Assembly (NCBI RefSeq): GCF_018398935.1
Contig: NZ_CP074694.1
Coordinates: 1,440,001-1,472,000, forward strand
Length of the DNA: 32,000 nucleotides
Reading direction: 5' to 3'
From: Telmatocola sphagniphila
GTDB lineage: Bacteria; Planctomycetota; Planctomycetia; Gemmatales; Gemmataceae
The first letter of the stretch is position 1. The number at the start of each line of letters is the position of its first letter. The notes under the pieces were generated by a model, which saw only the letters and a program-made list of their open reading frames with translations, ran no database searches and was not told where the DNA came from. The translations under genes were made by a program, and so were the position numbers. Of this stretch, positions 732 to 25,128 are shown in pieces.

Positions 732-1916
732 GTGTCTAACGATATCAGCGTACGGCAAGTAATGCAGCCCAACCCCGTATCGCTTCGTCCGGATCAGACG
801 ATCCAGGAAGCGATCGGACGAATGAATGAACTTCGTATCGGGGCGGTACTTGTATGCGATAATTCCCGGCTCGTCGGAATTTTCACCGAACGGGATTTCC
901 TGCGAAATGCCGCGATTGCAGAACCCGGCTGGCGTCTCTATCCCATCGAAATGTGGATGACGAAAGATCCACATACCATTGCTCCGAACATTGGTTGGGA
1001 AGAAGCGGCTTTCCAGATGGAGCGCATGCGAGTTCGCCATCTTCCTGTAGTGGAGGATGGCTTAGCAATAGGAATCATTTCTTCGCGCCACTTAATAGCC
1101 CATCGATCCAAGTATCTGGATCAGATGATTGCCCGGAGAACTAGCGAACTTCGGCTGGCCAACGATCAGCTCTTGTCACGCGATGCGGAAATGACCCATT
1201 ACATGAAGGTCGCCGCTAAACTGCAGAAGAAACTGGTGCTTCCTCATAGTCCCCCGAACTGGCCGGAGTTCGACTGGAGCATTTATTTTGCTCCTCTCGA
1301 ACCGCTGGGGGGCGACTACTACGATTTCGTGATGCCGAACGACGAACATCTGGGGTTCCTGATCGCCGATGCCAGTGGCCATAGTATTCCTGCGGCGATG
1401 GTCGCTATCATGGCCAGTCAGGCGTTTACTGAAGTTTCCAAAGAGACTGTGCAGCCTTCGTCTGTACTCGCGGCACTCAACAAGAGGCTGAACGACCTGG
1501 CCGAAGATAGGTTTGTCACAGGATTTTACGGTGTTTTCAATCGCCGTACGCGGGAATTCACGTATGCGAACGCCGGGCATCCATTCCCATTTCACTACTC
1601 CGCAAAACGCAAAATGACTCAGCCACTGTGGGCTCGGGGCTTTTTGCTCGGTGTCAGTCTGGATGAAATGTACACCGAGAAGAGATTGCATCTGGAAGCG
1701 GGCGACCGCCTATGTTTCTTCACAGACGGGATTCCCGATTGTCGAAACGACCAGGGGGAATCTTTCGGTACAGATCGTTTGGCAGCTTTTATCACTGAAA
1801 ATGCCCATCGTCGGCCGGCCGATTTCGTCGAAGTTTTTCGCAATCACCTCAAAGTATTTCGTGAAAATCAAAATCCGACGGACGATATGACGCTTATTAC
1901 ACTCGAAGTTCATTGA
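732..1916 (+). CDS. CBS-pair domain protein fused to a PP2C/SpoIIE-type serine phosphatase
   Basis: GTG start at 732 preceded by AAAGGAAA. N-terminal tandem CBS motifs (VRQVMQPNPVSL...IGAVLVCDNSRLVGIFTERDF; VRHLPVVEDGLAIGIISSRHL), then a helical linker, then a PP2C/SpoIIE core (GGDYYDF, LIADASGHSIPAAM, FFTDG, TDDMTLITLEV). Confidence 0.85.
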   Translation: MSNDISVRQVMQPNPVSLRPDQTIQEAIGRMNELRIGAVLVCDNSRLVGIFTERDFLRNAAIAEPGWRLYPIEMWMTKDPHTIAPNIGWEEAAFQMERMRVRHLPVVEDGLAIGIISSRHLIAHRSKYLDQMIARRTSELRLANDQLLSRDAEMTHYMKVAAKLQKKLVLPHSPPNWPEFDWSIYFAPLEPLGGDYYDFVMPNDEHLGFLIADASGHSIPAAMVAIMASQAFTEVSKETVQPSSVLAALNKRLNDLAEDRFVTGFYGVFNRRTREFTYANAGHPFPFHYSAKRKMTQPLWARGFLLGVSLDEMYTEKRLHLEAGDRLCFFTDGIPDCRNDQGESFGTDRLAAFITENAHRRPADFVEVFRNHLKVFRENQNPTDDMTLITLEVH

Positions 1917-1924
1917 ACCATCGC

Positions 1925-3076
1925 TCAGTTTAGATTTGCTCCCACCTGTTTAACGGGATTCAATGTGCCGGGCGGCAATCTCAGATATTTCGAGTAGATG
2001 CTTGGATCGCCCCAGGTGCTTTCATCAAAGTGCATCTTAATCTGATCGTCGGCTCGGGGTTGTCCCGCGGAGTCTACACCAACAAACGACAGGAAGAATT
2101 TTTCTTTTTTGCGCTCTGCCCCTCGCACCTTGCCGCCGTTATCCATGTCGAAAAAGGCCGACGTTTTGTCGCTGTTATCGACTGGTATGGAATACAGATC
2201 GGCATAGGAATTCATTACATATTTATGTTGATCGGCATTTGTTGGGACTTTCAGACGAGCGGCGCTGCCCATTCCTAAGACCTTATGATCTCCGGCTTTC
2301 AGGAAAACCACAGGTCTGCGCGGGGAATCTTTGGGCTCGTCGATCACTCCACCAACTTCCCAATCGATGGAGTCCTTTAAGCTTTTTTCGATGCTAAATT
2401 TTTTCCCTTTTTCCGGCGGACCGAATGTTTGCTGTGCGGCGTCTTCGAGCCACTTCTCCACGAAGACCTTGTGGAAACATCCGCAAGCCGCGATTGTTTC
2501 GAAGAAGAGCGGAACATTTTCCTGGTCGAGCGTGATGCGAACTACACAACTATCGATATCCGCATAGGACAGATCAATGGCTTTCATTCGAGGATGGGCT
2601 GGGTACCAGGCTGTGTATGTCAACTGAGTATGTTCTGCTTCGTCGATTTTTAACTTTTTCATAATCACATAAACTTTGGGTTCACCGGAGACATAGGATT
2701 TTAGTTTTCCGTCCGAGTCAACCTTCAAATGAGCTTGGCCAATCATGTCGTATTCTTGCGGATACGGATACTTTTGCGCCTGTGTATTGACGCGCTGTTG
2801 GACGAAGATAGGGGAGTAATAACTTACCAGTGTTTCGGCATCCGCACGTGCTAGTTGTTTTCGGTTGAAAAATTTCGAGTCTGGACCGGGAGTAAATACT
2901 ATACCGTCTCCTCCAACGGCCTGGATTGGGTTATCCAGGGCTTTTTGATCGAGCATCTGCCATTGCGTAAGATTATTCGAGAGTTCTTTCATCAATGTTG
3001 AACAACCAAACAGCATCAGGGAAGCACAGCAAAGCAAGGCGAAGAAAAGTTTCGATTTAAGTAATTGCGTTGGCAT
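1925..3076 (-). CDS. putative lipoprotein, function unknown
   Basis: The track ORF runs to 3208, but the ATG at 3076 is preceded by GGGGGAG (rc of 3080-3086). It opens a signal peptide with a lipobox (MPTQLLKSKLFFALLCCASLMLFGC). I recognised no catalytic motif. Confidence 0.7.
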   Translation of the reverse strand: MPTQLLKSKLFFALLCCASLMLFGCSTLMKELSNNLTQWQMLDQKALDNPIQAVGGDGIVFTPGPDSKFFNRKQLARADAETLVSYYSPIFVQQRVNTQAQKYPYPQEYDMIGQAHLKVDSDGKLKSYVSGEPKVYVIMKKLKIDEAEHTQLTYTAWYPAHPRMKAIDLSYADIDSCVVRITLDQENVPLFFETIAACGCFHKVFVEKWLEDAAQQTFGPPEKGKKFSIEKSLKDSIDWEVGGVIDEPKDSPRRPVVFLKAGDHKVLGMGSAARLKVPTNADQHKYVMNSYADLYSIPVDNSDKTSAFFDMDNGGKVRGAERKKEKFFLSFVGVDSAGQPRADDQIKMHFDESTWGDPSIYSKYLRLPPGTLNPVKQVGANLN

Positions 3077-3227
3077 AAAGTCTCCCCCAGTGCCGGTATC
3101 TACACGTGCGAGTTTGTTTCGCAGGTAAATCAAAATCTTATTGCGTGAGGGAAATAGCCGACGTGATATGTTTGCGTCAATAGAGATTTTCGGAAATATA
3201 TGCCGCAAGTCTTGAAATCAGAATAAG

Positions 3228-4460
3228 TTACGTCCGAATTTCAAGTGCCTTTTCCAATGCGACTAGCAATGCATCAATTTCCGTTTTTTCGATAATTAAA
3301 GGGGGCAAAAACGTAATTACATTTCGTCCTACCCCTGATTTACCGATCAAGAAACCGGAATCTTTCAAGCTTTCCAAGATTTGATCGACCAACGCAGGTG
3401 CAGGACCTTTTGTGGAATCCTTGAGTTCGACGCCGATCATTAAACCCAAGCCACGCACTTCGGTTATAGTCGGGCAACGAGCCTGAATTTCCTGAAGTCG
3501 CCCCTGCAAATAGTTGCCTAACCTTTCGCTGCGATCGCCCAAGTTGTGCCGCTTGTGAAAAATCAGCGTCGCCAACGCGGCTGCGCAGGACACGAGATTG
3601 CCACCAAATGTGGCCGCTCCGGGACGGGTATAGTGGGCAGCTATTTCATCACTGGTTATATAGGCCGCGATGGGAAAACCATTTCCGAGTGCTTTGGCGA
3701 CAGTAATAATGTCTGGCGTCACATCCCAGTGCTGAGTAGCAAACCACCGTCCGGTTCGATTCCAAGCGGTCTGGATTTCGTCCGCAATGAGCAAAGTGCC
3801 ATATTGCGAGCAGAGTTTTCTCAGTCGCGGCCAGTAGTTATTCGGGGGAACGATAATGCCGCCATTGCCTTGAATCGGTTCAGCGATTACTGCAGCAATA
3901 GAGCGTTTTTTCAGGAGTTCTTCTAATATTTCCAGGCTTTCCGGATGTCTTGTACCAGGTATCGCGTGGGCAGTGACCATGGGATTGGGATCCGTCCTCC
4001 ACATTTCCAGACCGGTGACGTTAATTGCCCACTTCGTCCGGCCATGGAGTCCTTCTTTCAGATAAGCGATTTCATGGCGACCTGTTGCAAGACTCGAAAG
4101 CATGAGCGCGCCTTCGTTGGCCTCGCTGCCGCTGGCGCAGAAGAAACTGCGTTTAAGATTACCCGGCGTGAGAGAAGAAATCGTTTCAGCGAGCTCCAGC
4201 ATAGGCTCTGTGAGATAGATCGTAGTGGTATGCTGGAGTTTTCGGAGTTGGGTAATAGCAGCTTCAATAATCTCCGGATTAGAATGCCCCGCACTGACGA
4301 CCGTAACGCCACTGAAGCAATCGAGGTACTTTTTCCCATCGGAATCGAAAAGATAAGCCCCTTCCCCACGCACGAGGACTGGGGGCCTCTGGAAAAAGTG
4401 GTAGACACAAGGAACCAAAAACTCTTTTTTCTTATCGATCAATTTCTCGAAATATTCCAA
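3228..4460 (-). CDS. class-III (omega-type) pyridoxal-phosphate aminotransferase
   Basis: TTG start at 4460 with GGGAGG 5 nt upstream. Typical class-III features: RGEGAYLFDSDGKKYLDCFSG, SGSEANEGA, LIADEIQTAW, and a PLP-lysine context DIITVAKALGNGFP. Last gene of the 8717->3228 operon, 15 nt after the upstream stop. Confidence 0.9.
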   Translation of the reverse strand: MEYFEKLIDKKKEFLVPCVYHFFQRPPVLVRGEGAYLFDSDGKKYLDCFSGVTVVSAGHSNPEIIEAAITQLRKLQHTTTIYLTEPMLELAETISSLTPGNLKRSFFCASGSEANEGALMLSSLATGRHEIAYLKEGLHGRTKWAINVTGLEMWRTDPNPMVTAHAIPGTRHPESLEILEELLKKRSIAAVIAEPIQGNGGIIVPPNNYWPRLRKLCSQYGTLLIADEIQTAWNRTGRWFATQHWDVTPDIITVAKALGNGFPIAAYITSDEIAAHYTRPGAATFGGNLVSCAAALATLIFHKRHNLGDRSERLGNYLQGRLQEIQARCPTITEVRGLGLMIGVELKDSTKGPAPALVDQILESLKDSGFLIGKSGVGRNVITFLPPLIIEKTEIDALLVALEKALEIRT

Positions 4461-4475
4461 AACTGCCTCCCTGCT

Positions 4476-5357
4476 TTATCCAACTTGCTTGTGTGCATGT
4501 ATCCGTTCAGGGATCATCCCTTCAATAATCGTCAATTGAGGCATTTCTGAACTCATCCCTAGATCCACAACCTGACAAAGTAGGACGTTTAAAGCCTCCC
4601 GGACATCAGCAGGCATTCGAACCGAGTCGCTATTGGCGAACATCGAAACAAATTTTTCCGTGCACTGCCCCGCTTCACCTCGCCCCATTCTGCGGACACG
4701 CGATAGAGCTTCACTTGAGTGAGCTAGTGAAAATTCAAGGCTTTGTCGGATCCCTGAACAGATTCTTTCCATGGAGGCAGTTCCGAGACTTCGTCTGATG
4801 ACATTCAGACCAACAGGCAATGGTAAATCGTGCCTCTGACACCATTCGGCCCCCAGGTCTGCCACGCACTTCAGTCCCAGTTGCGGATAGTAGAGAAGCT
4901 CTTCATGGATCATCACTCCGGCATCGAGATTTCCCGCGTTGATTGCATCGGCGATTTCATCGAATTGCATCTCTATCATGAGGGCATCCGGACAAAAGCA
5001 TTTCAGGAGAAACCAACCGGTAGTCGGTATGCCCGGAACTCCAACCCGTTTACCATTGAGATTCTCCATTTTCGAAAATTCGCGACTGACCAAAACGGGG
5101 CCATAACCACGACCCACGCTTGTTCCAACGTTGAGAATCGCGTATTCCCTGCTGATTTGAGGGTATATCACCGAAGAAATAGCTGTGACATCGTAAACAC
5201 CTTGTAGTGCCTTCTGATTTAAGCAACTCATATTCTCCGTAAAGAAATGGGGACGAAAACCTGGAAGCGGGATCAGACCGGTTTCAAGGGCATCGTAATA
5301 AAAAGCGTCGTCGCTATCGGGCGTATAGGCAATGGTTAACGTTTTGAGAGTTTTCAT
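4476..5357 (-). CDS. MqnA/MqnD/periplasmic-binding-fold family protein (menaquinone-futalosine-pathway-like paralogue)
   Basis: ATG at 5357 with AGGAGG upstream. The N-terminal LTIAYTPDSDDAFYYDAL and later GRGYGPVLV and VMIHEELL blocks match the VitK2_biosynth (MqnA/MqnD) family pattern as I remember it. I cannot say whether it is MqnA, MqnD or a third subgroup. Confidence 0.75.
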   Translation of the reverse strand: MKTLKTLTIAYTPDSDDAFYYDALETGLIPLPGFRPHFFTENMSCLNQKALQGVYDVTAISSVIYPQISREYAILNVGTSVGRGYGPVLVSREFSKMENLNGKRVGVPGIPTTGWFLLKCFCPDALMIEMQFDEIADAINAGNLDAGVMIHEELLYYPQLGLKCVADLGAEWCQRHDLPLPVGLNVIRRSLGTASMERICSGIRQSLEFSLAHSSEALSRVRRMGRGEAGQCTEKFVSMFANSDSVRMPADVREALNVLLCQVVDLGMSSEMPQLTIIEGMIPERIHAHKQVG

Positions 5358-5370
5358 TAAATCCTCCTGA

Positions 5371-6486
5371 TTAGTAAATTCCTAACTGAAGTTGCTTGGC
5401 GAGTTGTGGCGGCACCTGGGGATTTCGCAGTCCATCCGAAATTCCTCCCAGGGCTATCGCTGCTGGAATTGGCGCGACACGCTCTGCCTGATCACGTTCG
5501 AGGACGTTGAGAAGCAGACAGCTTTCATCCAATCGATGCACGAGTAAACGACCTGGTTGGCCGCGGTCACAAGGGACGGGCCTGAATCGCTCGTTATCTG
5601 AATCGTTCTTATCCCATTCGATAACCTGAAAAATGACTCGCTCGCCTAGTGGGTAGTAATCCATTGCCGATCGATATGTATCAACAGTTTCCATAACGAC
5701 TCCGAAGAGACTGTTGCCGTAGCCCGAGAGGTGCACGGCTGCCGGAAAAGCCAGTTTAAAGTCGTTAAGAGTTTGCGGAGAAATGCTCATTCCGCCATAG
5801 TGAATACCATGCAGAGACTCGCGTTGGCGATCCGTCATACGTTCCGCCAGAGCCTTCAGAGTTGGTGGCGTAGTGAATAGTATGCCGATTTCCTCTCGAT
5901 TCAAAATATCCAGGGCCTGAGAGATTACGTGCTGAAGATACCGATCACGAGCCATGGAGCCCTCGGCCAGCCGTTTCACCCAGCGTGGATCGAAGTCCAC
6001 ACTAAAAGGATCCATGCTCCCGGACTGTCTGGCCAGTTCCCTAACGACCTTGCCGATGATGTGTGGTCCAGAGGGACCCAGCCACAGCCAAGGCTCGCTT
6101 TTGGGGAAATGGGTAGCGTCTGCAACTTTCAGAAACGGAGTGATGAACGCTTCCTGAAATTCATCATTGCGAAATGCCGTTGCACATGGTTCGCCGCTCG
6201 TGCCGGCCGTTTCGCCAAGAATGAATTGGGAGAATAAGTGGTGAAATCGCTTAGGAATGAAGGCTTTAACTGGATATTTTCGGAGATCAGAAACCGGCAA
6301 AAGCCCCAATTTCCAGACATCTTTCATCTCTTGAATTTCAGCTTGAATCGACCAGGTCAGTCTCTCCTGCCGTTGCAGCCAATATGTACTGCCCCAGTTA
6401 GGATCCAGATGGATCTCCAAAAGCTCCCGTAACCGAGCGTCTACAGTGCCTTGGGACTTCGATTCTTGCCACGTAGAACTAGTCAC
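5371..6486 (-). CDS. adenylate-forming enzyme, LuxE / PaaK / F390-synthetase-like (acyl-AMP or acyl-protein synthetase)
   Basis: GTG start at 6486, 7 nt after the upstream stop. P-loop-like GETAGTSGEP (6187-6216, compare LuxE SSGTSG and PaaK SSGTTGKP), then LGPSGPH, IHYGGMS, SGYGNSLFG. The length of ~370 aa fits LuxE-type rather than full ANL ligases. Assignment is by motif only. Confidence 0.6.
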   Translation of the reverse strand: MTSSTWQESKSQGTVDARLRELLEIHLDPNWGSTYWLQRQERLTWSIQAEIQEMKDVWKLGLLPVSDLRKYPVKAFIPKRFHHLFSQFILGETAGTSGEPCATAFRNDEFQEAFITPFLKVADATHFPKSEPWLWLGPSGPHIIGKVVRELARQSGSMDPFSVDFDPRWVKRLAEGSMARDRYLQHVISQALDILNREEIGILFTTPPTLKALAERMTDRQRESLHGIHYGGMSISPQTLNDFKLAFPAAVHLSGYGNSLFGVVMETVDTYRSAMDYYPLGERVIFQVIEWDKNDSDNERFRPVPCDRGQPGRLLVHRLDESCLLLNVLERDQAERVAPIPAAIALGGISDGLRNPQVPPQLAKQLQLGIY

Positions 6487-6493
6487 TCTGATT

Positions 6494-7201
6494 TTACCTC
6501 GTCGGGCTACTCAAAAATTCCAGCACTTTTTGGAGCAACCACTCTTCATGACCTCGAAAAAAATGATTGTCACACCGGCGACTGATCCTCTTGCGGGGCA
6601 TGATCAGTGAATCGTACCAGGTATCGAGGCAAGAATTATCGTTCGCGAAATCGTCTTCGGAGGTCACGACCAAAATGGGCAACTTGAAAGCTTTGAAATT
6701 CGAGTAATCGTGCTTAGTAATCGTGGGCGCAATTAAAACGGCCGCGTAAACCTGCTCAGGAAGTGTCAGAAGCGGCAGCAGCGAGCAACCGAAACTGTAA
6801 GCAATGATCGCTAGTGGAAGCGATTGACCTAGGTTTTTAAGGAATCCAAGCGCGGCCTGAAGATCGCACGAAAAGCTTTCCTCACCAGTAATGTGCGAAG
6901 TTTTCCAGAACTCCGCCATCCGTTGTGGCGAGTTGATAGCCGATCCCTCGCTCTGACCGACCCCTGGATAATCGAATCGAAGTGCGGCGTAGAAATGAAG
7001 CGCCAATCCTTCACAGATATTCTTGACCACATTGTTATTCATGTTGCCGCCGAGAAGTGGATGAGGTCCGGCGAACACTACTGCGGTGTGTGGGTTCGCA
7101 TCTTCGGGATAAGAAAGAAGCCCGTGTAGCTTATTCTCACCACTAGCAAACCAGACATTCTCTGTGATTGGGTTGCTTTCAGTCTTGGGAAGATAGGACA
7201 T
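6494..7201 (-). CDS. alpha/beta hydrolase (COG2945-like, lid-less serine hydrolase/acyltransferase type)
   Basis: ATG at 7201 overlaps the upstream gene end by 23 nt. It carries the PHPLLGGNMNNNVV motif characteristic of COG2945-type hydrolases and a nucleophile elbow AYSFGCS. Confidence 0.75.
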   Translation of the reverse strand: MSYLPKTESNPITENVWFASGENKLHGLLSYPEDANPHTAVVFAGPHPLLGGNMNNNVVKNICEGLALHFYAALRFDYPGVGQSEGSAINSPQRMAEFWKTSHITGEESFSCDLQAALGFLKNLGQSLPLAIIAYSFGCSLLPLLTLPEQVYAAVLIAPTITKHDYSNFKAFKLPILVVTSEDDFANDNSCLDTWYDSLIMPRKRISRRCDNHFFRGHEEWLLQKVLEFLSSPTR

Positions 7202-8717
7202 CAGCCACCTCCTTGGGTGTCGATGTGCCCACTGGGGTTTCTGTAATAAATTGTCCGAATAAGTAAGCTAATTTGAGACCGGATTCAACGTCGCCTTTGA
7301 TGGCAATTTTCTGCTCGAAGAACGCTTCTTGAGGAGATTGTCTCCCCGAGATAATGGCCGCAAAAGTTTGTGTGTCGGAAATATACTTCACCGTGGCCGA
7401 TTCTGGAATTCCCGGTCGCGTGAAGATCAGTTCTCCCTTTTCCCATTTACATGTCCAACAACCACCTCCCTTGCCAGTAAGTGTTATGGTCACCGTGACG
7501 TCCAATTTCGCTTCTCTCGCCAGATCTGATCGGCGAGCCAATATCGGGAAAGTTTTCTCAATGTAGACGGCACAGGCTGACTCTGAATTTATGGTTCCGG
7601 AATAGCCAGGCTTCCCGGAAGACTTTTTGCCCCAGTGGTCGTTATCAGCAAATCGGATCAGCCTCTCAAGCACCGTTCGATCTATCCGAGGTGGCCGTGC
7701 ATCTGGAAGCTCCGCCAGTAGATTTTCCATGGAAAATAACGGATTTCCTGAAATGTAAGGCCAGTACTCCTGAACCCCCTGGCGAAACAGTTCGTCCAAT
7801 CGGCTGAAAATATTTTTTGCAGGTATTTTTGCAAGTTCGATGTTCGTCAGACGAAGTGTCTCTACGCCGATATCTCGAATGAAACTCGTTTTTATTGGTG
7901 AATCCGAAACCAAGTGGAAGATCTTTCCACCGCTGCTCGATCGGTTAAACAGTTTAAGAATCGTCCGAGCCACCCAATCCACGGGAATGAGATTCCATTC
8001 CTCGTTTCCATCGAAGGGGATTCGCAGTGTTGATGTTGCTAACGTCTTTTGAGGAATAGACCTCGCCAGTCGAACAGCGAGTTCCAGAAAACGATATAGA
8101 CCTGTATAAGTCGTTGTGTAGCCGGTTTCGCTGTCGCCAACGATGATGGAGGGACGGTATATCGTGGAGTGGATTTTTTTTGCATTTCTGACAGCAACTT
8201 CCGCAAGAAATTTGCTCTCTTCGTACGGATTGTGAAATCCTGATTCTCCCGTGGCTTCCTGTTCAAGAATCGTTCCCGATCTTCTGCCGCTTACAAAAGC
8301 GGTCGATATGTGATGCCAATTGGAAACGCTCAATGATTCGCAGAGATCCAGAAGTGCCCGAGTACCGTTTAAATTTGTTTTAAAGGGTTCTTGCTCCGGT
8401 GTTTTCCGAAAGGAGAGATTCGCAGCACAATGTAAAACACTCGAGCAATTTTTCTGAATCCAGTTCTTATCCGCTTTGCTGAGACTCGACTTGAGATCGC
8501 TTAAATCGCCGCAGATAATAAAGGGTTTAGAGAGCTTTTTCTGTAACCTTTCTTCCCATAACTCAACGATTTCTGATATTCGTTCAAAACCATTTGCTTG
8601 CTTAGAATTTCTAACCAGTACAGTTGTAGTGCCCATTCGCTGAAGGAGATCTTTTACTAGATACTGACCGAGAAATCCTGTCGCGCCCGTAAGTAAAACG
8701 CCTCGCTGCTGAGGCAT
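7179..8717 (-). CDS. SDR-family thioester/acyl reductase domain (NAD_binding_4-like) fused to a C-terminal SCP2 sterol-carrier domain
   Basis: The track ORF starts at TTG 8744. The ATG at 8717 has AAGGA 8 nt upstream and leads straight into the Rossmann motif LLTGATGFLG (8667-8690). The catalytic YEESK fits a terminal-reductase-type SDR. The last ~110 aa (approx 7179-7520) read as SCP2 (…QEAFFEQKIAIKGDVESGLKLAYLFGQF). Confidence 0.85.
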   Translation of the reverse strand: MPQQRGVLLTGATGFLGQYLVKDLLQRMGTTTVLVRNSKQANGFERISEIVELWEERLQKKLSKPFIICGDLSDLKSSLSKADKNWIQKNCSSVLHCAANLSFRKTPEQEPFKTNLNGTRALLDLCESLSVSNWHHISTAFVSGRRSGTILEQEATGESGFHNPYEESKFLAEVAVRNAKKIHSTIYRPSIIVGDSETGYTTTYTGLYRFLELAVRLARSIPQKTLATSTLRIPFDGNEEWNLIPVDWVARTILKLFNRSSSGGKIFHLVSDSPIKTSFIRDIGVETLRLTNIELAKIPAKNIFSRLDELFRQGVQEYWPYISGNPLFSMENLLAELPDARPPRIDRTVLERLIRFADNDHWGKKSSGKPGYSGTINSESACAVYIEKTFPILARRSDLAREAKLDVTVTITLTGKGGGCWTCKWEKGELIFTRPGIPESATVKYISDTQTFAAIISGRQSPQEAFFEQKIAIKGDVESGLKLAYLFGQFITETPVGTSTPKEVADVLSSQD

Positions 8718-8782
8718 AAATTCGATCCTTCGAAAAAGGGGCAAACTGAAATAGGAAAAAAGATCTTAAGGAGAGAGTCCGG

Positions 8783-8812
8783 ATTTTACCAGATGAAATC
8801 TGGGCAGGTCAA
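8783..8812 (-). promoter_or_regulatory. sigma-70-like promoter candidate for the 8717->3228 operon (TTGACC-N18-TAAAAT) with a palindrome in the spacer
   Basis: The minus strand reads TTGACC (8812-8807), an 18-nt spacer, then TAAAAT (8788-8783), about 65 nt upstream of ATG 8717. The spacer contains the perfect inverted repeat CCAGAT-TTC-ATCTGG (8789-8803). Planctomycete promoter rules are poorly known. Confidence 0.35.
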
Positions 8813-9112
8813 GAGAGGCGTTCTAGGGTGAGTGTTGGCTTTTCATCCGTATCGCATAACTGGCTTGACTCGATAATCGAATCCGAGTATTTCTGACGGC
8901 TCAAGCTCGCGCTAAAAGACGGATAGATTTTATGGGAAGATCCTGAAGATTGCGACTGGGTGGCTGCGGGGGTTTGGGAAAGAGCGATTCGGAAAGATTG
9001 AACAAGAATTCTCTTTCGATTCCTGAAATTCGCTACGCACGGATGACGGCCAAGTCGATCTTATACCGGAGCGAATTTGCAAGCCTCGGTTGAAGTGTTG
9101 TGGGAGCGGACG

Positions 9113-9868
9113 ATGCACGTTATGAGTTCACCGATTCTTTCGGTCTCCTGTCTCTCCAAGACTCATGGCGAAGGGGAATCACGCGTTCAAGCACTTCGTA
9201 GCGTAACCATGACTGTAGAGGCGGGGGAATTCGCGGTACTCATGGGGGTATCTGGCTCGGGAAAAAGTACTCTGCTCAATCTACTAGCCGGACTTGATCG
9301 GCCGACCTCCGGAAGTATTCGACTTTATGGAGAAGAGATCGCTGATCTCGATGACGATGCCCGGACCATTCTGAGACGACAGCGGATCGGCCTCATCTTC
9401 CAATCCTTCCAGCTTCTGGAATCCTTAACGGCCGAGGAGAACGTCGCTTTGCCTCTGACGATTGGCGGCATGAAGGCTCGCGATGCCCGACATCGCGCTG
9501 CCGAGACGCTCGAATGTGTCGGTTTAGCGAAAAGACGTCTGCATCGGCCTCATCAGCTCTCGGGCGGCGAACAACAAAGAGTGGCGATCGCTCGAGCGCT
9601 GGCCATCAAGCCGGCAATTCTGCTCGCAGATGAACCTACGGGGAACCTGGACACCAAAGAAGGAGAACGAATTATCCTTCTTCTCAAGGATCTGGTGGAG
9701 ATCCAGGGACAAACTCTGGTGTTGGTCACCCACGATCCCAGCCATGAAAAATATGCGGATCGAATCATCCATTTGAGGGATGGGCATATCGTCGAGGAGA
9801 TGCTCCAACCGCGTAACAATAATCGGATTCTCCCCACGGCGTGGAATCGGTTGCCGATTGCCGCCTAA
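9113..9868 (+). CDS. ABC transporter ATP-binding protein, MacB/LolD (type VII) family
   Basis: Walker A GVSGSGKST, Q-loop, signature LSGGEQQRVAIARAL, Walker B ILLADEPTGNLD, H-loop VTHD. I prefer the ATG at 9113 (GGGAG 5 nt upstream) to the track start 9077; ATG 9122 is also possible. Confidence 0.9.
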   Translation: MHVMSSPILSVSCLSKTHGEGESRVQALRSVTMTVEAGEFAVLMGVSGSGKSTLLNLLAGLDRPTSGSIRLYGEEIADLDDDARTILRRQRIGLIFQSFQLLESLTAEENVALPLTIGGMKARDARHRAAETLECVGLAKRRLHRPHQLSGGEQQRVAIARALAIKPAILLADEPTGNLDTKEGERIILLLKDLVEIQGQTLVLVTHDPSHEKYADRIIHLRDGHIVEEMLQPRNNNRILPTAWNRLPIAA

Positions 9869-9908: not shown

Positions 9909-12407
9909 ATGCATCTTCGCGACTACAGCATGCGTGAGTCAATTCGCCGTTATGGTAGAACCACGCTGACACTACTCGGCATCACAATCGGTATGGCCAG
10001 TATCGTGGCCGTGAAAATCACCATCTCGACAATCCATCAAACTTACGCGGGCGTCTTCGCGAATGCCAGTGCGAAACCGGATCTTGAGATTACCAGTGCG
10101 AGCCAAAAAGGAATCGAAGAAAATTCCCTTGGGGCAATTCTGCAAAATGTGGAGGCCATCCAGGAAATCCGCTCTCAAGTTCGGGGCTTGGTCGCTGCGG
10201 TGACGGAAAAGGGGCCGGTACCCGTCAGTCTTTTCGGCTCCACTCCCGATCGCACGCTGAAATTGATAACCGGATCCGAACTTAAAGCGGATAATGAAGC
10301 TTTGATGGAACAATCTCTAGCGAAATCGCTGAACATTCAGTGCGGAGACCAGTTTCAAGTTCTCAGCGAGCGCGGCGCGGCCGAGTTAAAATTGGTGGGG
10401 GTGTTGAAATCGGGATTGCTGGGTGAAGTGAATTCGCGCGGAATCGTTACCAATCTCGAGACGGCTCAGCAAGTATTCAATTTTGATTCTCGCGTTTCCT
10501 GCTTGCAGATTTTTCTTAAAGCAGGCTGCGACGCAGAATCCACTCGTTCGTTAATTGAGCGATTTCTGCCGGAAGGCTGGTACGTTAAGGATGCCAGTGC
10601 TCAATCGGCGGCGACCTCCGATGCCCTCGGCGCTACTGAGATGGGACTGATGTTTCTGGGTGTGATCGTGATCGCATCGGCAGTCTTTATGTGTTTAAAC
10701 TCGTTCCTGCTCACTTTTAACGAACGCCGCAAACAATTTGCTATCTTACGCACGATTGGTGCCACCTCCGTCCAGATCCAGAAGCTCATACTTGCCGAGG
10801 CTTTATTAATGGGCATTGCCGGTTCAATCCTTGGCTGCTTACTCGGTCTAATTTTGGCTCAGGCCTTGATTCGCGGGATGTCGCTCGTTTTGTGTCTCGA
10901 ATTTCCCGGTCCGTATATAACTTGGACGCCCTTTATCTGGGCTTTGCTTCTCGGTCCTCTTCTCTCTGTCCTGGCGGGGCTTCTGCCGGCACGCCTCGCC
11001 GCTTGCCGACAGCCTCTCGATGAACTTAAACCGGTCGATTGTGGCACGAAATGTTCCAAAGGGTATAAGTGCTGCCTCCCGATCGGTCTGCTTTTGCTCG
11101 CAGGGTCGATTGGCGTACGTTGGTTAATATCCTTTTCTTCTTTGAATGGTGAACTCAAGAGTACAATTTTCGTGGCTTCGTTACTCGGGACTGTCCTCGC
11201 TGGAGTCTGTCTGTTACCTTCGATGATCAAATTCGTGCTTCAGATGTTCTCGCACTGCTTCGCCGGTGTGGAAGGGAATTTGGCCGTCCAGAACCTGATC
11301 CGTTACCGTTCCCGAACCGAACTGACCGCGGCTGTATTATTTCTGTCGCTGGCCATCATGGTGACGTTCGGCCAAACGATTTCGGATATCTCGTCCGATC
11401 TCCACCAATGGTGCAGTCAAGCGATCGTCGCCGATTACGTTCTTCGGGGGTCCAAGCCCGATAATTCGCTTTCGATAGTAACGTCTCTCCCGGAAAGTGC
11501 TGAACATGAAATTGAACAACTGGCCGGGGTAGCCGCAGTCGACAAGCTCTCTTTCATTCGTTCTCAAGTGAATGGCCGAAGTGTTTTGATTCTCGCGCGA
11601 GGGCTTCCCAAGGATGGCAGCCTGCCGCTGGTGATTCGGGAGGGGAATGCAATTTCCGCTCGGGAAGCACTACAGCGTGGCGAAGCGATGCTCGGTACCG
11701 CACTGGCTCAAGATTTGGGCCTGCATGCCGGAGATTTCATTCAGATTAATACTGCGAAAGGAGAGCAGCGAGTTCGGGTGGCGGGCACGGTCACGGAATA
11801 TGCCGTCGGTGGCATGGCTCTTTTCATGGAATGGGACGCCGCAAGAAGCTTGCTCGAATTCCAAGGTGTGAACGCCTATATGATTTCCGCTAAGTCCGGT
11901 GAAGCGGAACAACTCCGTCAGTCGCTGGTCCGTTTTAGCGGGGAACGAAAATACTATCTCGAACATATCGGAGAACTGCGCAGCTCTATCGAAGGATTTC
12001 TTTCGAATGTCACTGGAGTGCTTTGGTGTCTGATGGTCATGGTCTTCGTCGTCGCCTCTTTAAGTGTGGTCAACACCCTGTTTATGAACGTACGCGACCA
12101 GAGCCGGGAGTTGGGAATTCTTCGTGCGATCGGTTTGAAGCAGTGTCAGCTAAAAAAAGTCATTCGGCTGCAGGCTGTTTTGTTGGCTTGCACTGTGATA
12201 GTGCCGGGCATTGCTGTAGGATTGATCTTATCGCAAGCGATCGAGACTGGCGGCACGGCCAAACTGCCTTCCACCCCGGAATTTGCAATTCGAGGTTGGG
12301 TCCTAATCGGTAGTTCGCTTCTGGCACTCTTGGTAGCTGGATTCGCAGGCATCTTACCAGCTCGTCGAGCAGCCCGGATGCCGGTAATGGCGGCCATGCA
12401 AAGTTGA
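9909..12407 (+). CDS. ABC transporter permease with two FtsX-like domains (MacB/YbbP-type)
   Basis: 832 aa. An N-terminal TM helix is followed by an extracytoplasmic domain, and FtsX-type four-helix bundles occur twice (around LRTIGATSVQIQKL and LRAIGLKQCQLKKV). It lies 40 nt downstream of the ATPase gene. Confidence 0.9.
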   Translation: MHLRDYSMRESIRRYGRTTLTLLGITIGMASIVAVKITISTIHQTYAGVFANASAKPDLEITSASQKGIEENSLGAILQNVEAIQEIRSQVRGLVAAVTEKGPVPVSLFGSTPDRTLKLITGSELKADNEALMEQSLAKSLNIQCGDQFQVLSERGAAELKLVGVLKSGLLGEVNSRGIVTNLETAQQVFNFDSRVSCLQIFLKAGCDAESTRSLIERFLPEGWYVKDASAQSAATSDALGATEMGLMFLGVIVIASAVFMCLNSFLLTFNERRKQFAILRTIGATSVQIQKLILAEALLMGIAGSILGCLLGLILAQALIRGMSLVLCLEFPGPYITWTPFIWALLLGPLLSVLAGLLPARLAACRQPLDELKPVDCGTKCSKGYKCCLPIGLLLLAGSIGVRWLISFSSLNGELKSTIFVASLLGTVLAGVCLLPSMIKFVLQMFSHCFAGVEGNLAVQNLIRYRSRTELTAAVLFLSLAIMVTFGQTISDISSDLHQWCSQAIVADYVLRGSKPDNSLSIVTSLPESAEHEIEQLAGVAAVDKLSFIRSQVNGRSVLILARGLPKDGSLPLVIREGNAISAREALQRGEAMLGTALAQDLGLHAGDFIQINTAKGEQRVRVAGTVTEYAVGGMALFMEWDAARSLLEFQGVNAYMISAKSGEAEQLRQSLVRFSGERKYYLEHIGELRSSIEGFLSNVTGVLWCLMVMVFVVASLSVVNTLFMNVRDQSRELGILRAIGLKQCQLKKVIRLQAVLLACTVIVPGIAVGLILSQAIETGGTAKLPSTPEFAIRGWVLIGSSLLALLVAGFAGILPARRAARMPVMAAMQS

Positions 12408-19330: not shown

Positions 19331-19999
19331 GATTTCTCTCCTTTTTGTTTTGAAACCTGGGCAAAATAATCTTATGAACGTCTACTATACAAAAAAAACA
19401 CATACCTACCACATTTCTACGCTCTTTTTTTTAATTTTTTTATGTTTTCTATGCATAGGTCAAAGTGTTCGACCTTGAAAACTTTATAAGATCTCACCAC
19501 TCGGAGCTTAGTTCCAGTAGCTCGATCGATAGTTTCCAAGAGCGAAGTTTTAGTAAGTGCTGTTCGATGCTAAGCTCTAAATCCGTTAGCGTTATCGATC
19601 AAAGGACGGATCAAAAAGCTTCCGCGAATATCGAGATTTGTTTCAGATAGGAATTCGGGGAGACTCGTTTCTTTATTCGATTTGATCCTTCCATCGTTTG
19701 GGGCTACGGCGGAAAAAGTTTACCGTTTTAGACGCGTCGAACGTCTATAATCACTCTAAGTATTGGGCTACTACATCAGGAGATGGCCAAGCTAAACTGG
19801 AGTCTGCACAAACACTTGAGATTTCAAATTATAGCTATTAGTCGACCCGGTAGTAACAGCAACTTTCCCCTCCTTCCCGTATCGCATTCAATTCGTTTCT
19901 GGGCCCGAGCGAAAATCCTTACAGGATAATCTGAAATGTAACGAGCGACTTTATCTGAGGGATAGTGCTCTTCACTTTTTGCAGCCTGTCCCTTCGCTT

Positions 20000-20015
20000 T
20001 GGCACGACATATGCG
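20000..20015 (+). promoter_or_regulatory. sigma-54-type -24/-12 promoter candidate (TGGCACgacatATGCG)
   Basis: GG (20001-20002) and GC (20013-20014) have the invariant N10 spacing, and the -24 hexamer TGGCAC(G) is perfect. The -12 element is ATGC rather than TTGC. The predicted TSS near 20026 is ~19 nt before ATG 20045 and just upstream of its GGGAAGG SD. Confidence 0.3.
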
Positions 20016-20044
20016 TAAATTTGCGGAAATTCTTTGGGAAGGCT

Positions 20045-21781
20045 ATGAATTATCACGCTTTGGCTACGGATTACGATGGCACGATTGCCACCGATGGGGT
20101 GGTTTTCCCTGAAACACTCGCAGCACTTAAGAAATTCCGAGAATCGGGTCATCGTCTGATACTTGTCACAGGTCGCGAACTTCCCGACCTTTTTTCCACC
20201 TTCAAGCATTCGGAAATTTTTGATCGCATCATCGCCGAAAACGGCGCGGTGCTTTACGATCCGTCGACCAAAGAATCGCGTCTGCTCAGTTCGGCACCTC
20301 CCGAAAGCTTCCTGGAAGAACTCAAGCGTCGTGACATCGCTCCGATCTCGGAGGGCCAGGTGATTGTTGCCACCTGGGAGCCCCATCAGAATGAGGTCCT
20401 GCAGGTTATCCGGGAGATGGGATTGGGCTTGCAGGTGATTTTTAACAAAGGCGCTGTGATGGTTCTGCCCTCCGGCATCAACAAAGCGACGGGTTTGAAC
20501 GCTGCGTTGACCGAACTGAAACTTTCTCCTCACAATGTGGTCGGGGTTGGTGATGCGGAAAACGATCACTCGTTTCTGGAAATATGCGGTTGTTCCGTAG
20601 CTGTGGCAAACGCGCTACCCGCAGTCAAAGATCATTGCGATTTGGTGATGAAGACCGATCACGGAGCGGGAGTTGTCGAACTGATCGAAGGCCTACTCCA
20701 GGGGAGTTTAAACTTCAGCCCATTCAAATCGATTCCGTTGGGAGAGAACGAGAATAATCTGCCCGTTGCGTTGGATCTCTTGAACGAAGCTGTGCTGATT
20801 TGCGGTACGTCCGGTAGCGGGAAGTCGACTTTAGCCACTTCATTACTCGAACGAGTTTCGGCCGAAGGGCTTCAAATAGTGATTTTTGATCCGGAAGGAG
20901 ATTACAACTCGCTCGAGTTTTTAATCTCCCTGGGAAGTCCGGAGCGAATTCCACTCGTGGAGGAAGTCATTGACATCCTTAGGAATCCAGAACGAAATCT
21001 CTCGCTGAATTTGCTCGGAGTCGCCTTGGAGCATCGGCCCGAACTTTTTGCCGAGATGCTCAAACGAGTGTTAGAATTACGTTCTCGGACTGGCCATCCT
21101 CATTTGATCGTTGTCGACGAGACGCATCATTTGCTTCCCACCGATTGGAAGAAAGAACCTCATCTTTTCCAGCGGAATGGCAAGGGGATTCTTTACATTA
21201 CCGTGCACCCGGAATCGGTCGCCCGATCGGTATTAGAAACTGTGAATTCGGTTTTGGTAGTTGGAGAAAATCCTGAAGGTAAGATCCAGGATTTTTGCAG
21301 CGTTATTGACCGCCCGGTCCCTCCATTACCAGTCTTGGAATCCAAGTTGCCTTCAGGAACAGCACTCTTGTATCGCCGTGAACCTGAAGTGCTGTCTCTG
21401 GTCCGTACGGAAAAACCAACTGTACTCAGAAAAAGACATTCCAGAAAATACCCTGAGGGCAATTTGGGACCGGAACGAAGCTTCTATTTCCGAGGTCCCG
21501 ACGATAAGCTGAATCTTAAGGCCCACAATTTGATTCTGTTCGTTCAATTGGCGGATGGAGTTGATGATGAGACCTGGTTATTTCATCTGCATAAACAGGA
21601 CTATTCCGCTTGGCTCCGTCGGTATATCAAGAATTCGGATTTGGCTCTTGAGGTTTCTCAAATCGAACTGGATAAGTCGCTTTCTCCGATAGAATCTCGC
21701 TTAGCCATCCGTCGAGCAATCGAAGCGAATTACACTTTGCCGGCAGACCAACCTTCAGGACGGATCGATCCACAGAAATAG
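20045..21781 (+). CDS. fusion protein: N-terminal HAD-IIB (Cof-type) phosphatase domain + C-terminal HerA/FtsK-clade (DUF87-like) P-loop NTPase domain
   Basis: I prefer the ATG at 20045 (GGGAAGG SD) to TTG 19979. HAD motifs: DYDGT (20069-20083), LVTGR, GVGDAENDHSF. ATPase motifs: Walker A CGTSGSGKST (GTSGSGKST = 20804-20830), IFDPEGDY, Walker B LIVVDETHH (21104-21130). Confidence 0.85.
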   Translation: MNYHALATDYDGTIATDGVVFPETLAALKKFRESGHRLILVTGRELPDLFSTFKHSEIFDRIIAENGAVLYDPSTKESRLLSSAPPESFLEELKRRDIAPISEGQVIVATWEPHQNEVLQVIREMGLGLQVIFNKGAVMVLPSGINKATGLNAALTELKLSPHNVVGVGDAENDHSFLEICGCSVAVANALPAVKDHCDLVMKTDHGAGVVELIEGLLQGSLNFSPFKSIPLGENENNLPVALDLLNEAVLICGTSGSGKSTLATSLLERVSAEGLQIVIFDPEGDYNSLEFLISLGSPERIPLVEEVIDILRNPERNLSLNLLGVALEHRPELFAEMLKRVLELRSRTGHPHLIVVDETHHLLPTDWKKEPHLFQRNGKGILYITVHPESVARSVLETVNSVLVVGENPEGKIQDFCSVIDRPVPPLPVLESKLPSGTALLYRREPEVLSLVRTEKPTVLRKRHSRKYPEGNLGPERSFYFRGPDDKLNLKAHNLILFVQLADGVDDETWLFHLHKQDYSAWLRRYIKNSDLALEVSQIELDKSLSPIESRLAIRRAIEANYTLPADQPSGRIDPQK

Positions 21782-23604: not shown

Positions 23605-25128
23605 ATGGGCTGGAATAAAGAACGGCTACAAGAGGTGGCCCATAGCAGACTTGCCGGAGCGAAACTTATTATGGTGGTGAATAGAGAGCCCTACATTCAC
23701 CTTCATCAAAAAGAAAGAATTCATTGGATTCGACCCGCCGGTGGATTGACCACTGCTTTAGATCCAGTGATGCAGGCCTGCGGCGCGTTGTGGGTTGCCC
23801 ATGGCTCGGGCGATGCCGATCAGGAAGTTTCGGACGCAAAAGGGCGCATTGGAGTGCCCCCGGACGATCCGCGATATACCCTGAAGCGAATTTGGCTCAC
23901 TCTCAATGAAGAGAAGGGGTACTACTACGGCTTCGCCAATAGCAGTCTCTGGCCTCTGTGCCATCAGGTTTACTCTCGACCCACTTTCGATCCCGATCAT
24001 TGGGATATTTATCGCCGGGTTAACCATAAATTCGCTGAATCGATTTTAGAAGAGGTGGGAAACGAGCCGGCCTTGGTTTTTGTTCAGGATTATCATTTTG
24101 CGTTGCTTCCCAAAATTCTGAAAGACGCGCGGCCCGATCTCGTGGTGGCACAATTCTGGCATATCCCCTGGCCCAGCCCGGAGGTGTTTCGAGTATGTCC
24201 CTGGTATCAGGAGATTATCGAGGGAATGCTGGGAAATGATCTTCTGGCTTTTCACATTCAGAATCACTGTAATAATTTCCTGGATACAGTGGATCGAACT
24301 TTGGAGTGCCGGCTGGATTGGGAACATTTCAGCGTTTTGCGTAACGGCCATACCACGCGCGTGCGTCCCCATCCCATCAGTGTAGATCCTACTCTGAGCG
24401 AGGAGTATCTGGATCAGGACTGGCAGATTCGAGCCCGTCAATTTCGAGATAAATATCAATTAGGCGATCGAAAGCTGATCGTGGGAGTTGATCGACTGGA
24501 TTACACCAAGGGAATTCCTGAGCGGCTTCGGGCCGTCGATCGATTACTCATGACTCATCCGGAATGGGTGGAGAATTTTCATTTCGTTCAGATTGCCGCT
24601 CCCAGTCGAACGCTTCTGGATGCTTACCAATCCCTAACTCAAGAGGTTCAGACTCTCGTCGATGAGATTAACTTGAGATATGGGTCCTCCCATTGGCAAC
24701 CCGTTCTCTTTCTGAACGAACATCTCGGCCCCGAGGATGTCGCCGTCCTTTACAGGATGTCGGAGGGATGTGTGGTAAGTTCTCTTCACGATGGCATGAA
24801 CTTGGTTGCCAAAGAATTTGTCTGTGCCCGATCTGATGAGCAAGGTGTACTGGTTTTATCTGAATTTACCGGTGCGGCCCGCGAGTTGACCGATGCGATT
24901 ATCGTCAATCCCTATGATGTTTCGCAGCTTTCGGATGGCATGCATTCGATACTGACAATGCCTGCCGCGGAGCAGTCTAAACGCATGAAAAAGATGAGAG
25001 CCGAGGTACAGGACAAGAATATTTATCGATGGGCAGGCATGCTGCTCTCTGAGGCTTTGAAACTCGTGGAATCTACTCCGAGCGAAAACTTGGAAAAAGA
25101 GAGTCTTAGCACAGAATTTGCTGCGTAA
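23605..25128 (+). CDS. otsA: GT20-family glycosyltransferase: trehalose-6-phosphate synthase (glucosylglycerol-phosphate synthase-like subgroup not excluded)
   Basis: ATG at 23605 with GGAGG 6 nt upstream. GT20 hallmarks: [62 protein letters not shown]. The NREPY-type N-terminus also occurs in GgpS, so the acceptor specificity is uncertain. Confidence 0.85.

Follow-up and report, generated by a model that had tools for sequence, protein, structure and literature searches.

A 32,000-nt stretch of the Telmatocola sphagniphila genome (contig NZ_CP074694.1, positions 1,440,001 to 1,472,000; hereafter the window) carries on its minus strand an operon of five genes. They encode a short-chain dehydrogenase/reductase (SDR) of the thioester-reductase type fused to an SCP2 domain, an alpha/beta hydrolase, a predicted adenylate-forming enzyme (the adenylase), an MqnD-type protein and a class-III aminotransferase. 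We propose that the five gene products act together in the cytoplasm to turn the carboxyl group of a lipophilic, probably naphthoquinone-related acid into a primary amine and pass the product to an exporter, a reading to which we assign a probability of roughly one half. Taken separately, the reaction order from acid through acyl-adenylate and aldehyde to amine is likely, given the linkage and fusions of the genes; a naphthoate or quinone-type acid as the substrate is a tentative choice, held at somewhat under even odds. An earlier note on this DNA, made from its letters and open reading frames (ORFs), had read the operon as Lux-like carboxylate activation and reduction followed by transamination. 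Its five domain assignments all hold in profile searches against Pfam, the adenylase through a structure match to EhpF. It had also known of no characterised pathway with this gene set, and our literature searches (EhpF/ThnN, late steps of the futalosine pathway, and U32 with SCP2 and menaquinone) likewise found no description of the five genes together.

Linkage and gene fusions

Window-type loci, here called Type I, number 58 after removal of redundancy and were collected by a genome scan, look-ups of representative homologues and a metagenome scan with the family alignment. Their ORFs were assigned to families with hidden Markov models built from the cluster proteins. Loci of actinomycete homologues (L010–L039), which resemble polyketide synthase (PKS) and nonribosomal peptide synthetase (NRPS) clusters, were left out because longest-ORF calling is too noisy in high-GC DNA. 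Components were counted in those 21 Type I loci whose adenylase gene is flanked by 5 kb or more of sequence on either side. The SDR reductase and SCP2 are each present in 20 of these, the aminotransferase in 19 and the hydrolase in 18. MqnD occurs in 11 and a U32 protein in seven, never together, for a combined 18/21. A lipoprotein family and an exporter are each found in 12, the exporter being an HAE3/HpnN-like resistance-nodulation-division (RND) transporter in eight and of MacB type in four; an aldehyde dehydrogenase (Aldedh) gene is found in none. The five-gene set recurs across Planctomycetota and beyond, a conservation on which the earlier note had made its reading depend, with occurrences in Gemmataceae, Pirellulales and further lineages, some of them rich in multihaem cytochromes. 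The identical gene order is met again in genomes and metagenomes of Planctomycetota, which places the operon far beyond chance.

Several of the components are also fused to one another. We found hydrolase::adenylase fusions (P0364/P0513; Pirellulales), SCP2::adenylase fusions (P0404, P0408 and P0411), an aminotransferase::adenylase fusion followed by a LuxC-like Aldedh gene (P0436) and a reductase::SCP2::aminotransferase fusion (L098). These fusions, together with the synteny of reductase, aminotransferase and hydrolase, back the logic of acid activation, reduction and transamination that the earlier note had put forward.

A sister clade, Type II (L008, L009, L044 and L101–L132), has an adenylase about 30% identical to that of Type I. 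An Aldedh/LuxC-like reductase accompanies it in 29 of 36 loci, MqnD never does, and ABC/FtsX genes (ABC, ATP-binding cassette) sometimes follow the reductase gene. Aminotransferase::adenylase fusions of 824 and 894 aa recur at L044/L045 and L107. The Type II pairing is the EhpF/EhpG arrangement, and the adenylase is therefore habitually a reductase partner.

Conservation within the cluster is uneven. Among Planctomycetota loci (window versus L002, L003 and L007) the reductase-SCP2 protein is 36–37% identical, compared with 45–51% for the hydrolase and 61–78% for the other four cluster proteins; judged by these identities, it diverges far more quickly than its neighbours do. This disparity, along with the fact that operons can mix functions, is what one could cite for the view that the genes share no pathway and were packed together by genome streamlining. 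However, the genes co-occur across deep lineages in differing orders, four kinds of domain fusion join them, and the core persists while accessory genes are exchanged around it. This explanation is strongly disfavoured and has next to no chance of being correct.

The adenylase

The 371-aa product of the third gene reaches the Pfam AMP-binding profile only below threshold (E = 1.5e-3). Against the crystal structure of EhpF it gives a phmmer match with E = 7e-23 over residues 20–338, at about 24% identity. Foldseek, run on its AlphaFold model (predicted local distance difference test, pLDDT, 91), places EhpF first (E = 6e-25, TM 0.76/0.81), above every other ANL enzyme, followed by PaaK1/2, BT_0428, NatL2 and AjiA1. 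The alignment with the 366-aa EhpF runs end to end, and the ANL C-terminal domain of about 110 aa, which forms thioesters, is absent; PaaK-type structures, at 425–435 aa, are only partly covered by the model (TMt 0.58). Homologues carry the JGI label ThnN, and the P-loop-like motif GETAGTSGEP and a second motif, GYGNSLFG, are conserved. The family is small, with 434 representatives among 1.84 billion proteins.

From these matches we predict that the protein is an adenylate-forming enzyme of the EhpF/ThnN type. The earlier note had described a LuxE/PaaK-like adenylating enzyme of about 370 aa: the predicted fold does fall within the ANL adenylate-forming enzymes, with PaaK-type structures next best, but EhpF is the best match and the Pfam LuxE family is unmatched. 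A LuxE-like acyl-cysteine intermediate was considered and rejected, as the adenylase clade has no invariant cysteine. The nearest solved relatives act on aromatic or aryl-alkyl acids: EhpF on phenazine-1,6-dicarboxylate, PaaK on phenylacetate, and NatL2 and AjiA1 likewise on acids of this class.

The reductase-SCP2 protein and the hydrolase

The reductase matches NAD_binding_4 (PF07993; E = 3e-49) in Pfam and carries the motifs TGATGFLG (TGxxGxxG) and Y..SK (YxxxK), the latter conserved across the family. Among solved structures it comes closest to the terminal reductase of MxaA (E = 7.5e-21), to a reductase domain from a PKS and to those of carboxylic acid reductases (CARs); against TIGR01746 it scores 147 bits, below the cut-off of 213. 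The C-terminal SCP2 domain (PF02036) spans residues 408–496 (E = 8e-8; 32.9 bits against a cut-off of 21.3) and matches the UbiT model weakly (E = 8e-5, 23 bits, below the cut-off of 46.9). By Pfam, none of the five operon proteins contains a PP-binding carrier domain, and no ORF resembling an acyl or peptidyl carrier protein was found in Type I loci. Delivery of the substrate by a carrier protein was rejected on this ground.

The hydrolase is lid-less and matches Hydrolase_4 (E = 1.4e-7) in Pfam. The positions of its serine (AYSFG), aspartate and histidine are conserved at 80–95% or more among 31 family members. Three solved relatives, 3trd, 2i3d and 2fuk, are all functionally undescribed; by analogy, the protein may be a counterpart of LuxD.

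In one cluster (L085), the gene immediately upstream of that for reductase-SCP2, at 5328–7766, encodes an ArsS-like radical S-adenosylmethionine/DUF3641 protein of 812 aa (TIGR04167, E = 5e-121). This cluster contains neither MqnD nor U32.

The aminotransferase

The last gene encodes a clear Aminotran_3 protein (PF00202; E = 2e-99) with the pyridoxal-phosphate lysine motif VAKALGNG, of which AKALGNG is conserved in the cluster-linked copies. It scores below every NCBIfam equivalog cut-off, its best scores being with the acetylornithine, LysJ and GABA aminotransferase models. The canonical carboxylate-binding arginine, found in the motif nviRflPPL of ArgD, LysJ and PuuE and present in the structures 9wrf, 1vef, 7nn1 and 6wj8, is a threonine in the window protein. 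Threonine or alanine occupies this position in all but three of the cluster-linked copies with a readable region, and a conserved arginine lies four residues upstream (RNVLT.xPPL). The arginine-replaced form is seen in the window, L004 and L040–L098 and, judging from its sequence, is a distinct class-III subfamily. Housekeeping ArgD was rejected as an identity, since the protein falls below all ArgD cut-offs and the canonical arginine is absent. Racemases and lyases are among the nearest solved relatives, and the canonical arginine is found in a racemase as well. The relocated arginine suggests an unusual amino donor or acceptor, or even a reaction other than transamination.

The preference for acetylornithine, LysJ and GABA aminotransferase models would fit a route that parallels ArgB/C/D or LysZ/Y/J, in which activation, reduction and transamination at the side-chain carboxyl would turn an N-acyl-glutamate-type lipid into an N-acyl-ornithine-type aminolipid. 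SCP2 would then hold the acyl chain, and the hydrolase would be a deacylase or acyltransferase. Ornithine lipids, including methylated ones, have been reported from T. sphagniphila, and glutamate semialdehyde has been suggested as the product of ThnN/ThnO. However, the aminotransferase has lost the very arginine with which ArgD and LysJ bind the carboxylates of substrate or donor, the core contains no N-acyltransferase, and MqnD and U32 are left unexplained. We consider this route very improbable.

MqnD, U32 and links to quinones

The fourth protein matches VitK2_biosynth (PF02621; E = 7e-56) and, among solved relatives, AF1704 (E = 6e-51) and the MqnD protein TTHA1568 (E = 4e-40); no MqnA structure matched at E ≤ 1e-3. 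KEGG/JGI and UniRef annotate it as MqnD, 1,4-dihydroxy-6-naphthoate synthase, and an exact protein match assigns it to Telmatocola sphagniphila, which belongs to the Gemmataceae. An IHE motif, which aligns with those of TTHA1568 and AF1704, is invariant in 15 cluster-linked MqnD copies and contains what we take to be the conserved pocket histidine, His145 of TTHA1568.

The identity matrix does not set the cluster-linked copies apart. Those of L046 and L086 are 29–44% identical to the planctomycete copies, TTHA1568 and AF1704 are 32–39% identical to them, and the L086 protein is closest to the Thermus MqnD (41%). Since the distant cluster-linked copies are no closer than the Thermus MqnD or AF1704, a dedicated paralogue clade was rejected. 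The earlier note had spoken of an MqnA/MqnD paralogue; membership of the MqnA/MqnD (VitK2_biosynth) family holds, but the status of paralogue is doubtful, the protein being of MqnD type and the cluster-linked copies forming no clade of their own. On sequence grounds, the cluster appears to have recruited ordinary MqnD-type genes, and the operon copy may simply be the organism's own MqnD. That would tie the operon to menaquinone chemistry itself, not to a side-branch paralogue.

Other lineages have a 650–680-aa U32 protein in the MqnD slot (L048, L057, L060, L063, L073, L076, L078, L082 and L090), which is UbiU/TrhP-like with scores below the cut-offs. In the adenylase tree, association with MqnD dominates the planctomycete clade and reappears elsewhere. 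L086, which has MqnD, is sister to L076, which has U32; this points to an exchange of MqnD and U32 as accessory genes.

Further neighbours point towards quinones. One adenylase homologue (L051 1075–3424; also L052) lies in the order MenA-like prenyltransferase, DUF2284 metal-binding protein, adenylase homologue, Aldedh, which may be a prenylated-naphthoate-linked version of the adenylase–reductase pair. U32-type operons have cytochrome b (petB/petD-like or b561) and multihaem c genes embedded or directly adjoining; in L057, L060 and L063, petB/petD-like cytochrome b genes and the multihaem c genes separate the aminotransferase gene from the hydrolase gene within the operon. Pirellulales-type clusters adjoin a NapH-like ferredoxin subunit of a quinol dehydrogenase, and a cytochrome oxidase cluster adjoins the L042 cluster upstream. 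Together with the UbiT likeness of SCP2, we regard these quinone links as suggestive rather than as proof.

Planctomycetes use the futalosine pathway (PMC3914697), whose late steps have been predicted from genomics only (PMC4746308). The cluster could thus be a planctomycete variant of these steps, in which the C6 carboxyl of 1,4-dihydroxy-6-naphthoate, or of its prenylated form, is processed towards menaquinone, either alongside the predicted UbiD/UbiX-like decarboxylation or as a substitute for it. The operon includes the gene for MqnD, whose product is the last soluble intermediate; UbiT-like SCP2 proteins are reported to serve quinone assembly (PMC6747719); and, the reductase apart, the cluster genes show housekeeping-like conservation (45–51% for the hydrolase, 61–78% for the other four). 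However, chemistry offers no sensible way from an aldehyde or aminomethyl group to the unsubstituted ring, and menaquinone has no role for a tightly linked, sometimes fused aminotransferase and needs neither an exporter nor periplasmic lipoproteins. Many futalosine organisms, moreover, evidently do without an adenylase family of so few representatives. We judge such a variant very unlikely.

The lipoprotein and the exporter

Next after the aminotransferase gene lies a gene for a lipoprotein with the lipobox LFGC, which has no Pfam or NCBIfam match. Its homologues are 66–74% identical, all annotated as hypothetical, and residues C177, C198, C200 and H202 (ACGCFH) are invariant. The AlphaFold model (pLDDT 73) has no fold match in the PDB. 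Clusters of distant lineages contain homologous lipoproteins too (L043, L046, L049, L072, L075, L085, L086, L088 and L098).

Divergent from the operon are genes for an ABC ATPase, which matches the YbbA, MacB and LolD models at about 1e-66, and for a duplicated permease, which matches lolCE (E = 3e-30) as well as ADOP, YbbP and DevC-like models. In L040 (a 9.3-Mb genome) and L042 (a 1.3-Mb contig), the five genes are followed collinearly by a 370-aa lipoprotein homologue, the ABC ATPase and the duplicated MacB/FtsX permease, and the ATPase gene follows the lipoprotein gene in L007 as well. A single inversion would explain the arrangement in the window, with the ABC pair divergent upstream. Other lineages have an HAE3/HpnN-like RND (MMPL) transporter in place of the MacB-type exporter. 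The functional unit is thus larger than five genes, with the conserved lipoprotein and an exporter travelling along. At L002 (10052–12307) and L005 (10136–11194), two extra genes between those for MqnD and the aminotransferase encode a proline-rich lipoprotein and a membrane-anchored DUF1574/GDSL-like (SGNH) protein, the latter hinting at periplasmic acyl transfer onto the product. Variant clusters also carry a DUF547 protein with a signal peptide.

The exporters, which are of lipid type (HAE3/HpnN-like RND; DevC/LolCE-like permease), and the accompanying lipoproteins bear on a Lux-like alternative as well. The hydrolase would free a fatty acid from acyl-ACP (acyl carrier protein), the adenylase and SDR would give the fatty aldehyde, and the transaminase would yield a fatty amine for an exported envelope lipid, with MqnD a mere menaquinone housekeeping gene. 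The order of hydrolase, adenylase and reductase mirrors LuxD, LuxE and LuxC, within the ANL enzymes the adenylase falls in the PaaK/LuxE-like branch, SCP2 binds lipids generally, a fatty-acid desaturase gene and a phospholipase D-like gene adjoin some loci, and three well-covered loci contain neither MqnD nor U32. Nevertheless, the Pfam LuxC, LuxD and LuxE families are unmatched and the nearest solved adenylases take aromatic acids. That MqnD or U32 holds a fixed slot in 18/21 loci, while swapping between sister lineages, is hard to reconcile with a passenger gene. We hold a fatty-amine product to be unlikely.

Proposed pathway

We infer the chemical steps, the substrate and the export from the gene set, the domain identities, the linkage and the fusions. 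In our acid-to-amine scheme, the EhpF/ThnN-type enzyme would first use ATP to form an acyl-adenylate; because it has no ANL C-terminal domain, it would make no CoA or carrier thioester itself. The SDR would then reduce the activated acyl group to the aldehyde with NAD(P)H, SCP2 holding the hydrophobic part of the substrate, and the class-III aminotransferase would turn the aldehyde into the amine. The Ser-Asp-His hydrolase would work directly with the adenylase, either by releasing the acid from a precursor ester or thioester or by taking over the acyl group and holding it, as an acyl-enzyme, on its way from adenylase to reductase. MqnD would supply or shape the acid, for which 1,4-dihydroxy-6-naphthoate or a prenylated form is our preferred candidate, and the outcome would be an aminomethyl-naphthoquinol-type lipid. 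This product would pass to the adjacent MacB/LolCDE-like exporter, or to an RND transporter in other lineages, and to the periplasm-facing lipoprotein.

Several points weigh against this scheme. The usual substrates of SDRs like this reductase are phosphopantetheinyl thioesters, and the operon has no gene for a carrier; that an adenylate or acyl-O-Ser intermediate is reduced directly has no established precedent known to us. The missing carboxylate-binding arginine makes the amino donor, and even the reaction type, of the aminotransferase uncertain. Planctomycetes have been reported to contain plain menaquinone-6, and no aminomethyl-naphthoquinone is known to us. MqnD could be a co-transcribed housekeeping gene, 3 of the 21 well-covered loci lack both it and U32, and the cytochrome neighbours could reflect the cytochrome-rich gene content of those lineages.

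Going further, we speculate that the operon, lipoprotein and exporter make and export an amine lipid derived from 1,4-dihydroxy-6-naphthoate, or from another polyprenyl-aromatic acid in the U32 lineages. The lipid's place of action would be outside the cytoplasmic membrane, where it could serve, for instance, as a lipid-anchored redox cofactor or shuttle to quinol-oxidising complexes of the cytochrome b/multihaem c and NapH-like kinds, which several lineages encode within or next to the cluster. This extended picture is a long shot.

If the proposal is right, a widespread and well-conserved system would constitute a new branch of lipid or quinone metabolism starting from a futalosine-pathway intermediate, and planctomycetes would contain an unrecognised exported amine lipid. 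It would couple an EhpF-type adenylase to a thioester-reductase-type SDR independently of a carrier. The system would also bring a subfamily of aminotransferases whose active-site arginine has moved, a new family of lipoproteins marked by a Cys/His motif, and a testable function for the ThnN/EhpF family, in which only EhpF has a proposed role.

Gene arrangement and other features of the window

The five minus-strand ORFs lie where the earlier note had placed them (Table 1), and the junctions it gave agree with the sequence: an overlap of 23 nt between the reductase and hydrolase genes, then gaps of 7, 13 and 15 nt. Its conclusion that the genes form one coupled unit is likewise borne out. Shine–Dalgarno-like motifs precede the starts at 7201 (AAGGAGG), 6486 (GAGG), 5357 (AGGAGG) and 4460 (GGGAGG). 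The earlier note had located these sites inside the ends of the preceding genes, which holds for 7201 only; those of 5357 and 4460 fall in the short spacers. Some 66 nt ahead of the first ATG, the intergenic DNA contains a sigma-70-like promoter candidate. It is the best such site in 1700–9200, a consensus match only, in a region where three sites were found against 8.0 expected. No convincing terminator was found between the operon genes in the same region.

Table 1. Coordinates of the operon genes, adjoining genes and promoter candidate in the window.
Feature	Position	Strand	Details
SDR thioester-reductase::SCP2 gene	8717–7179	minus	512 aa from ATG at 8717; ORF opens at TTG 8744
Alpha/beta hydrolase gene	7201–6494	minus	235 aa; 23-nt overlap with reductase gene
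EhpF/ThnN-type adenylase gene (predicted)	6486–5371	minus	371 aa
MqnD-type gene	5357–4476	minus	293 aa
Class-III aminotransferase gene	4460–3228	minus	410 aa
Lipoprotein gene, next after aminotransferase gene	1925–3076	minus	383 aa from ATG
ABC ATPase (YbbA/LolD/MacB-like) gene, divergent from operon	9077–9868	plus	ABC_tran E = 7e-37
Duplicated MacB/LolCE-type permease gene	9909–12407	plus	832 aa; FtsX x2, MacB_PCD x2
Sigma-70-like promoter candidate	8812–8783	minus	TTGACC-18-TAAAAT with TG; 10/12 consensus matches

Elsewhere in the window (19979–21781 and 23605–25128, both on the plus strand), a gene for an unusual 600-aa fusion of a haloacid dehalogenase (HAD) phosphatase with a HerA/DUF87-type P-loop ATPase lies near a GT20 gene. 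The HAD part is N-terminal and Hydrolase_3/S6PP-like, and GT20 is the trehalose-6-phosphate-synthase family.

Comparison with known systems

The earlier note had matched the operon to the logic of LuxCDE. The likeness is that of an alpha/beta hydrolase, an acyl-AMP-forming enzyme devoid of the C-terminal domain and an NADPH reductase that together give an aldehyde. LuxCDE is nonetheless not the closest precedent. Pfam LuxC (PF05893), LuxD (PF02273) and LuxE (PF04443) are unmatched at E ≤ 0.01, and the system is thus no member of the LuxCDE group; it also has no equivalent of the LuxE acyl-cysteine, its reductase belongs to another superfamily, and a transaminase is added.

EhpF/EhpG, from the cluster for the phenazine D-alanylgriseoluteic acid, and ThnN/ThnO, from the thienamycin cluster, are closer. 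Their adenylases are of the same family and fold, at about 370 aa and with no ANL C-terminal domain, and are likewise paired with a reductase gene. The chemistry put forward for EhpF/EhpG is reportedly conversion of an aromatic carboxylate to an aldehyde via the adenylate. The present system differs from EhpF/EhpG in that its reductase is a thioester-reductase-type SDR::SCP2 protein and not Aldedh/LuxC-like, and its adenylase is only about 24% identical to EhpF. To our knowledge, the ehp and thn clusters have no counterparts of the hydrolase, aminotransferase, MqnD, lipoprotein or exporter.

Two quinone systems share single components with the operon. The futalosine pathway (MqnA–E) has a bona fide MqnD-type gene in common with it, and the O2-independent ubiquinone system UbiT/UbiU/UbiV has an SCP2 domain, as in UbiT/UbiJ, and a counterpart of the UbiU/TrhP-like U32 protein that takes the MqnD slot in sister lineages. 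However, the cluster contains no other mqn or ubi genes, its SCP2 and U32 proteins score below the UbiT and UbiU cut-offs, and known quinone pathways, unlike the module proposed here, have no adenylation, reduction or transamination step.

The same sequence of acid or thioester to aldehyde to amine, with a reductase of the same family, is found where a CAR or an NRPS/PKS terminal reductase acts with an omega-transaminase, as in polyketide alkaloids and PigE. The NCBIfam PigE model matches the window aminotransferase, and the reductase::SCP2::aminotransferase fusion of L098 presumably parallels the domain organisation of PigE. Here, however, no phosphopantetheinyl carrier domain or gene is present, and adenylation would fall to a free-standing EhpF-type enzyme instead of a full ANL domain. 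Because there is no carrier, this is not a CAR/NRPS reductase system. By analogy, the operon would work like EhpF/EhpG with a transaminase added, or like a CAR or terminal reductase followed by a transaminase.

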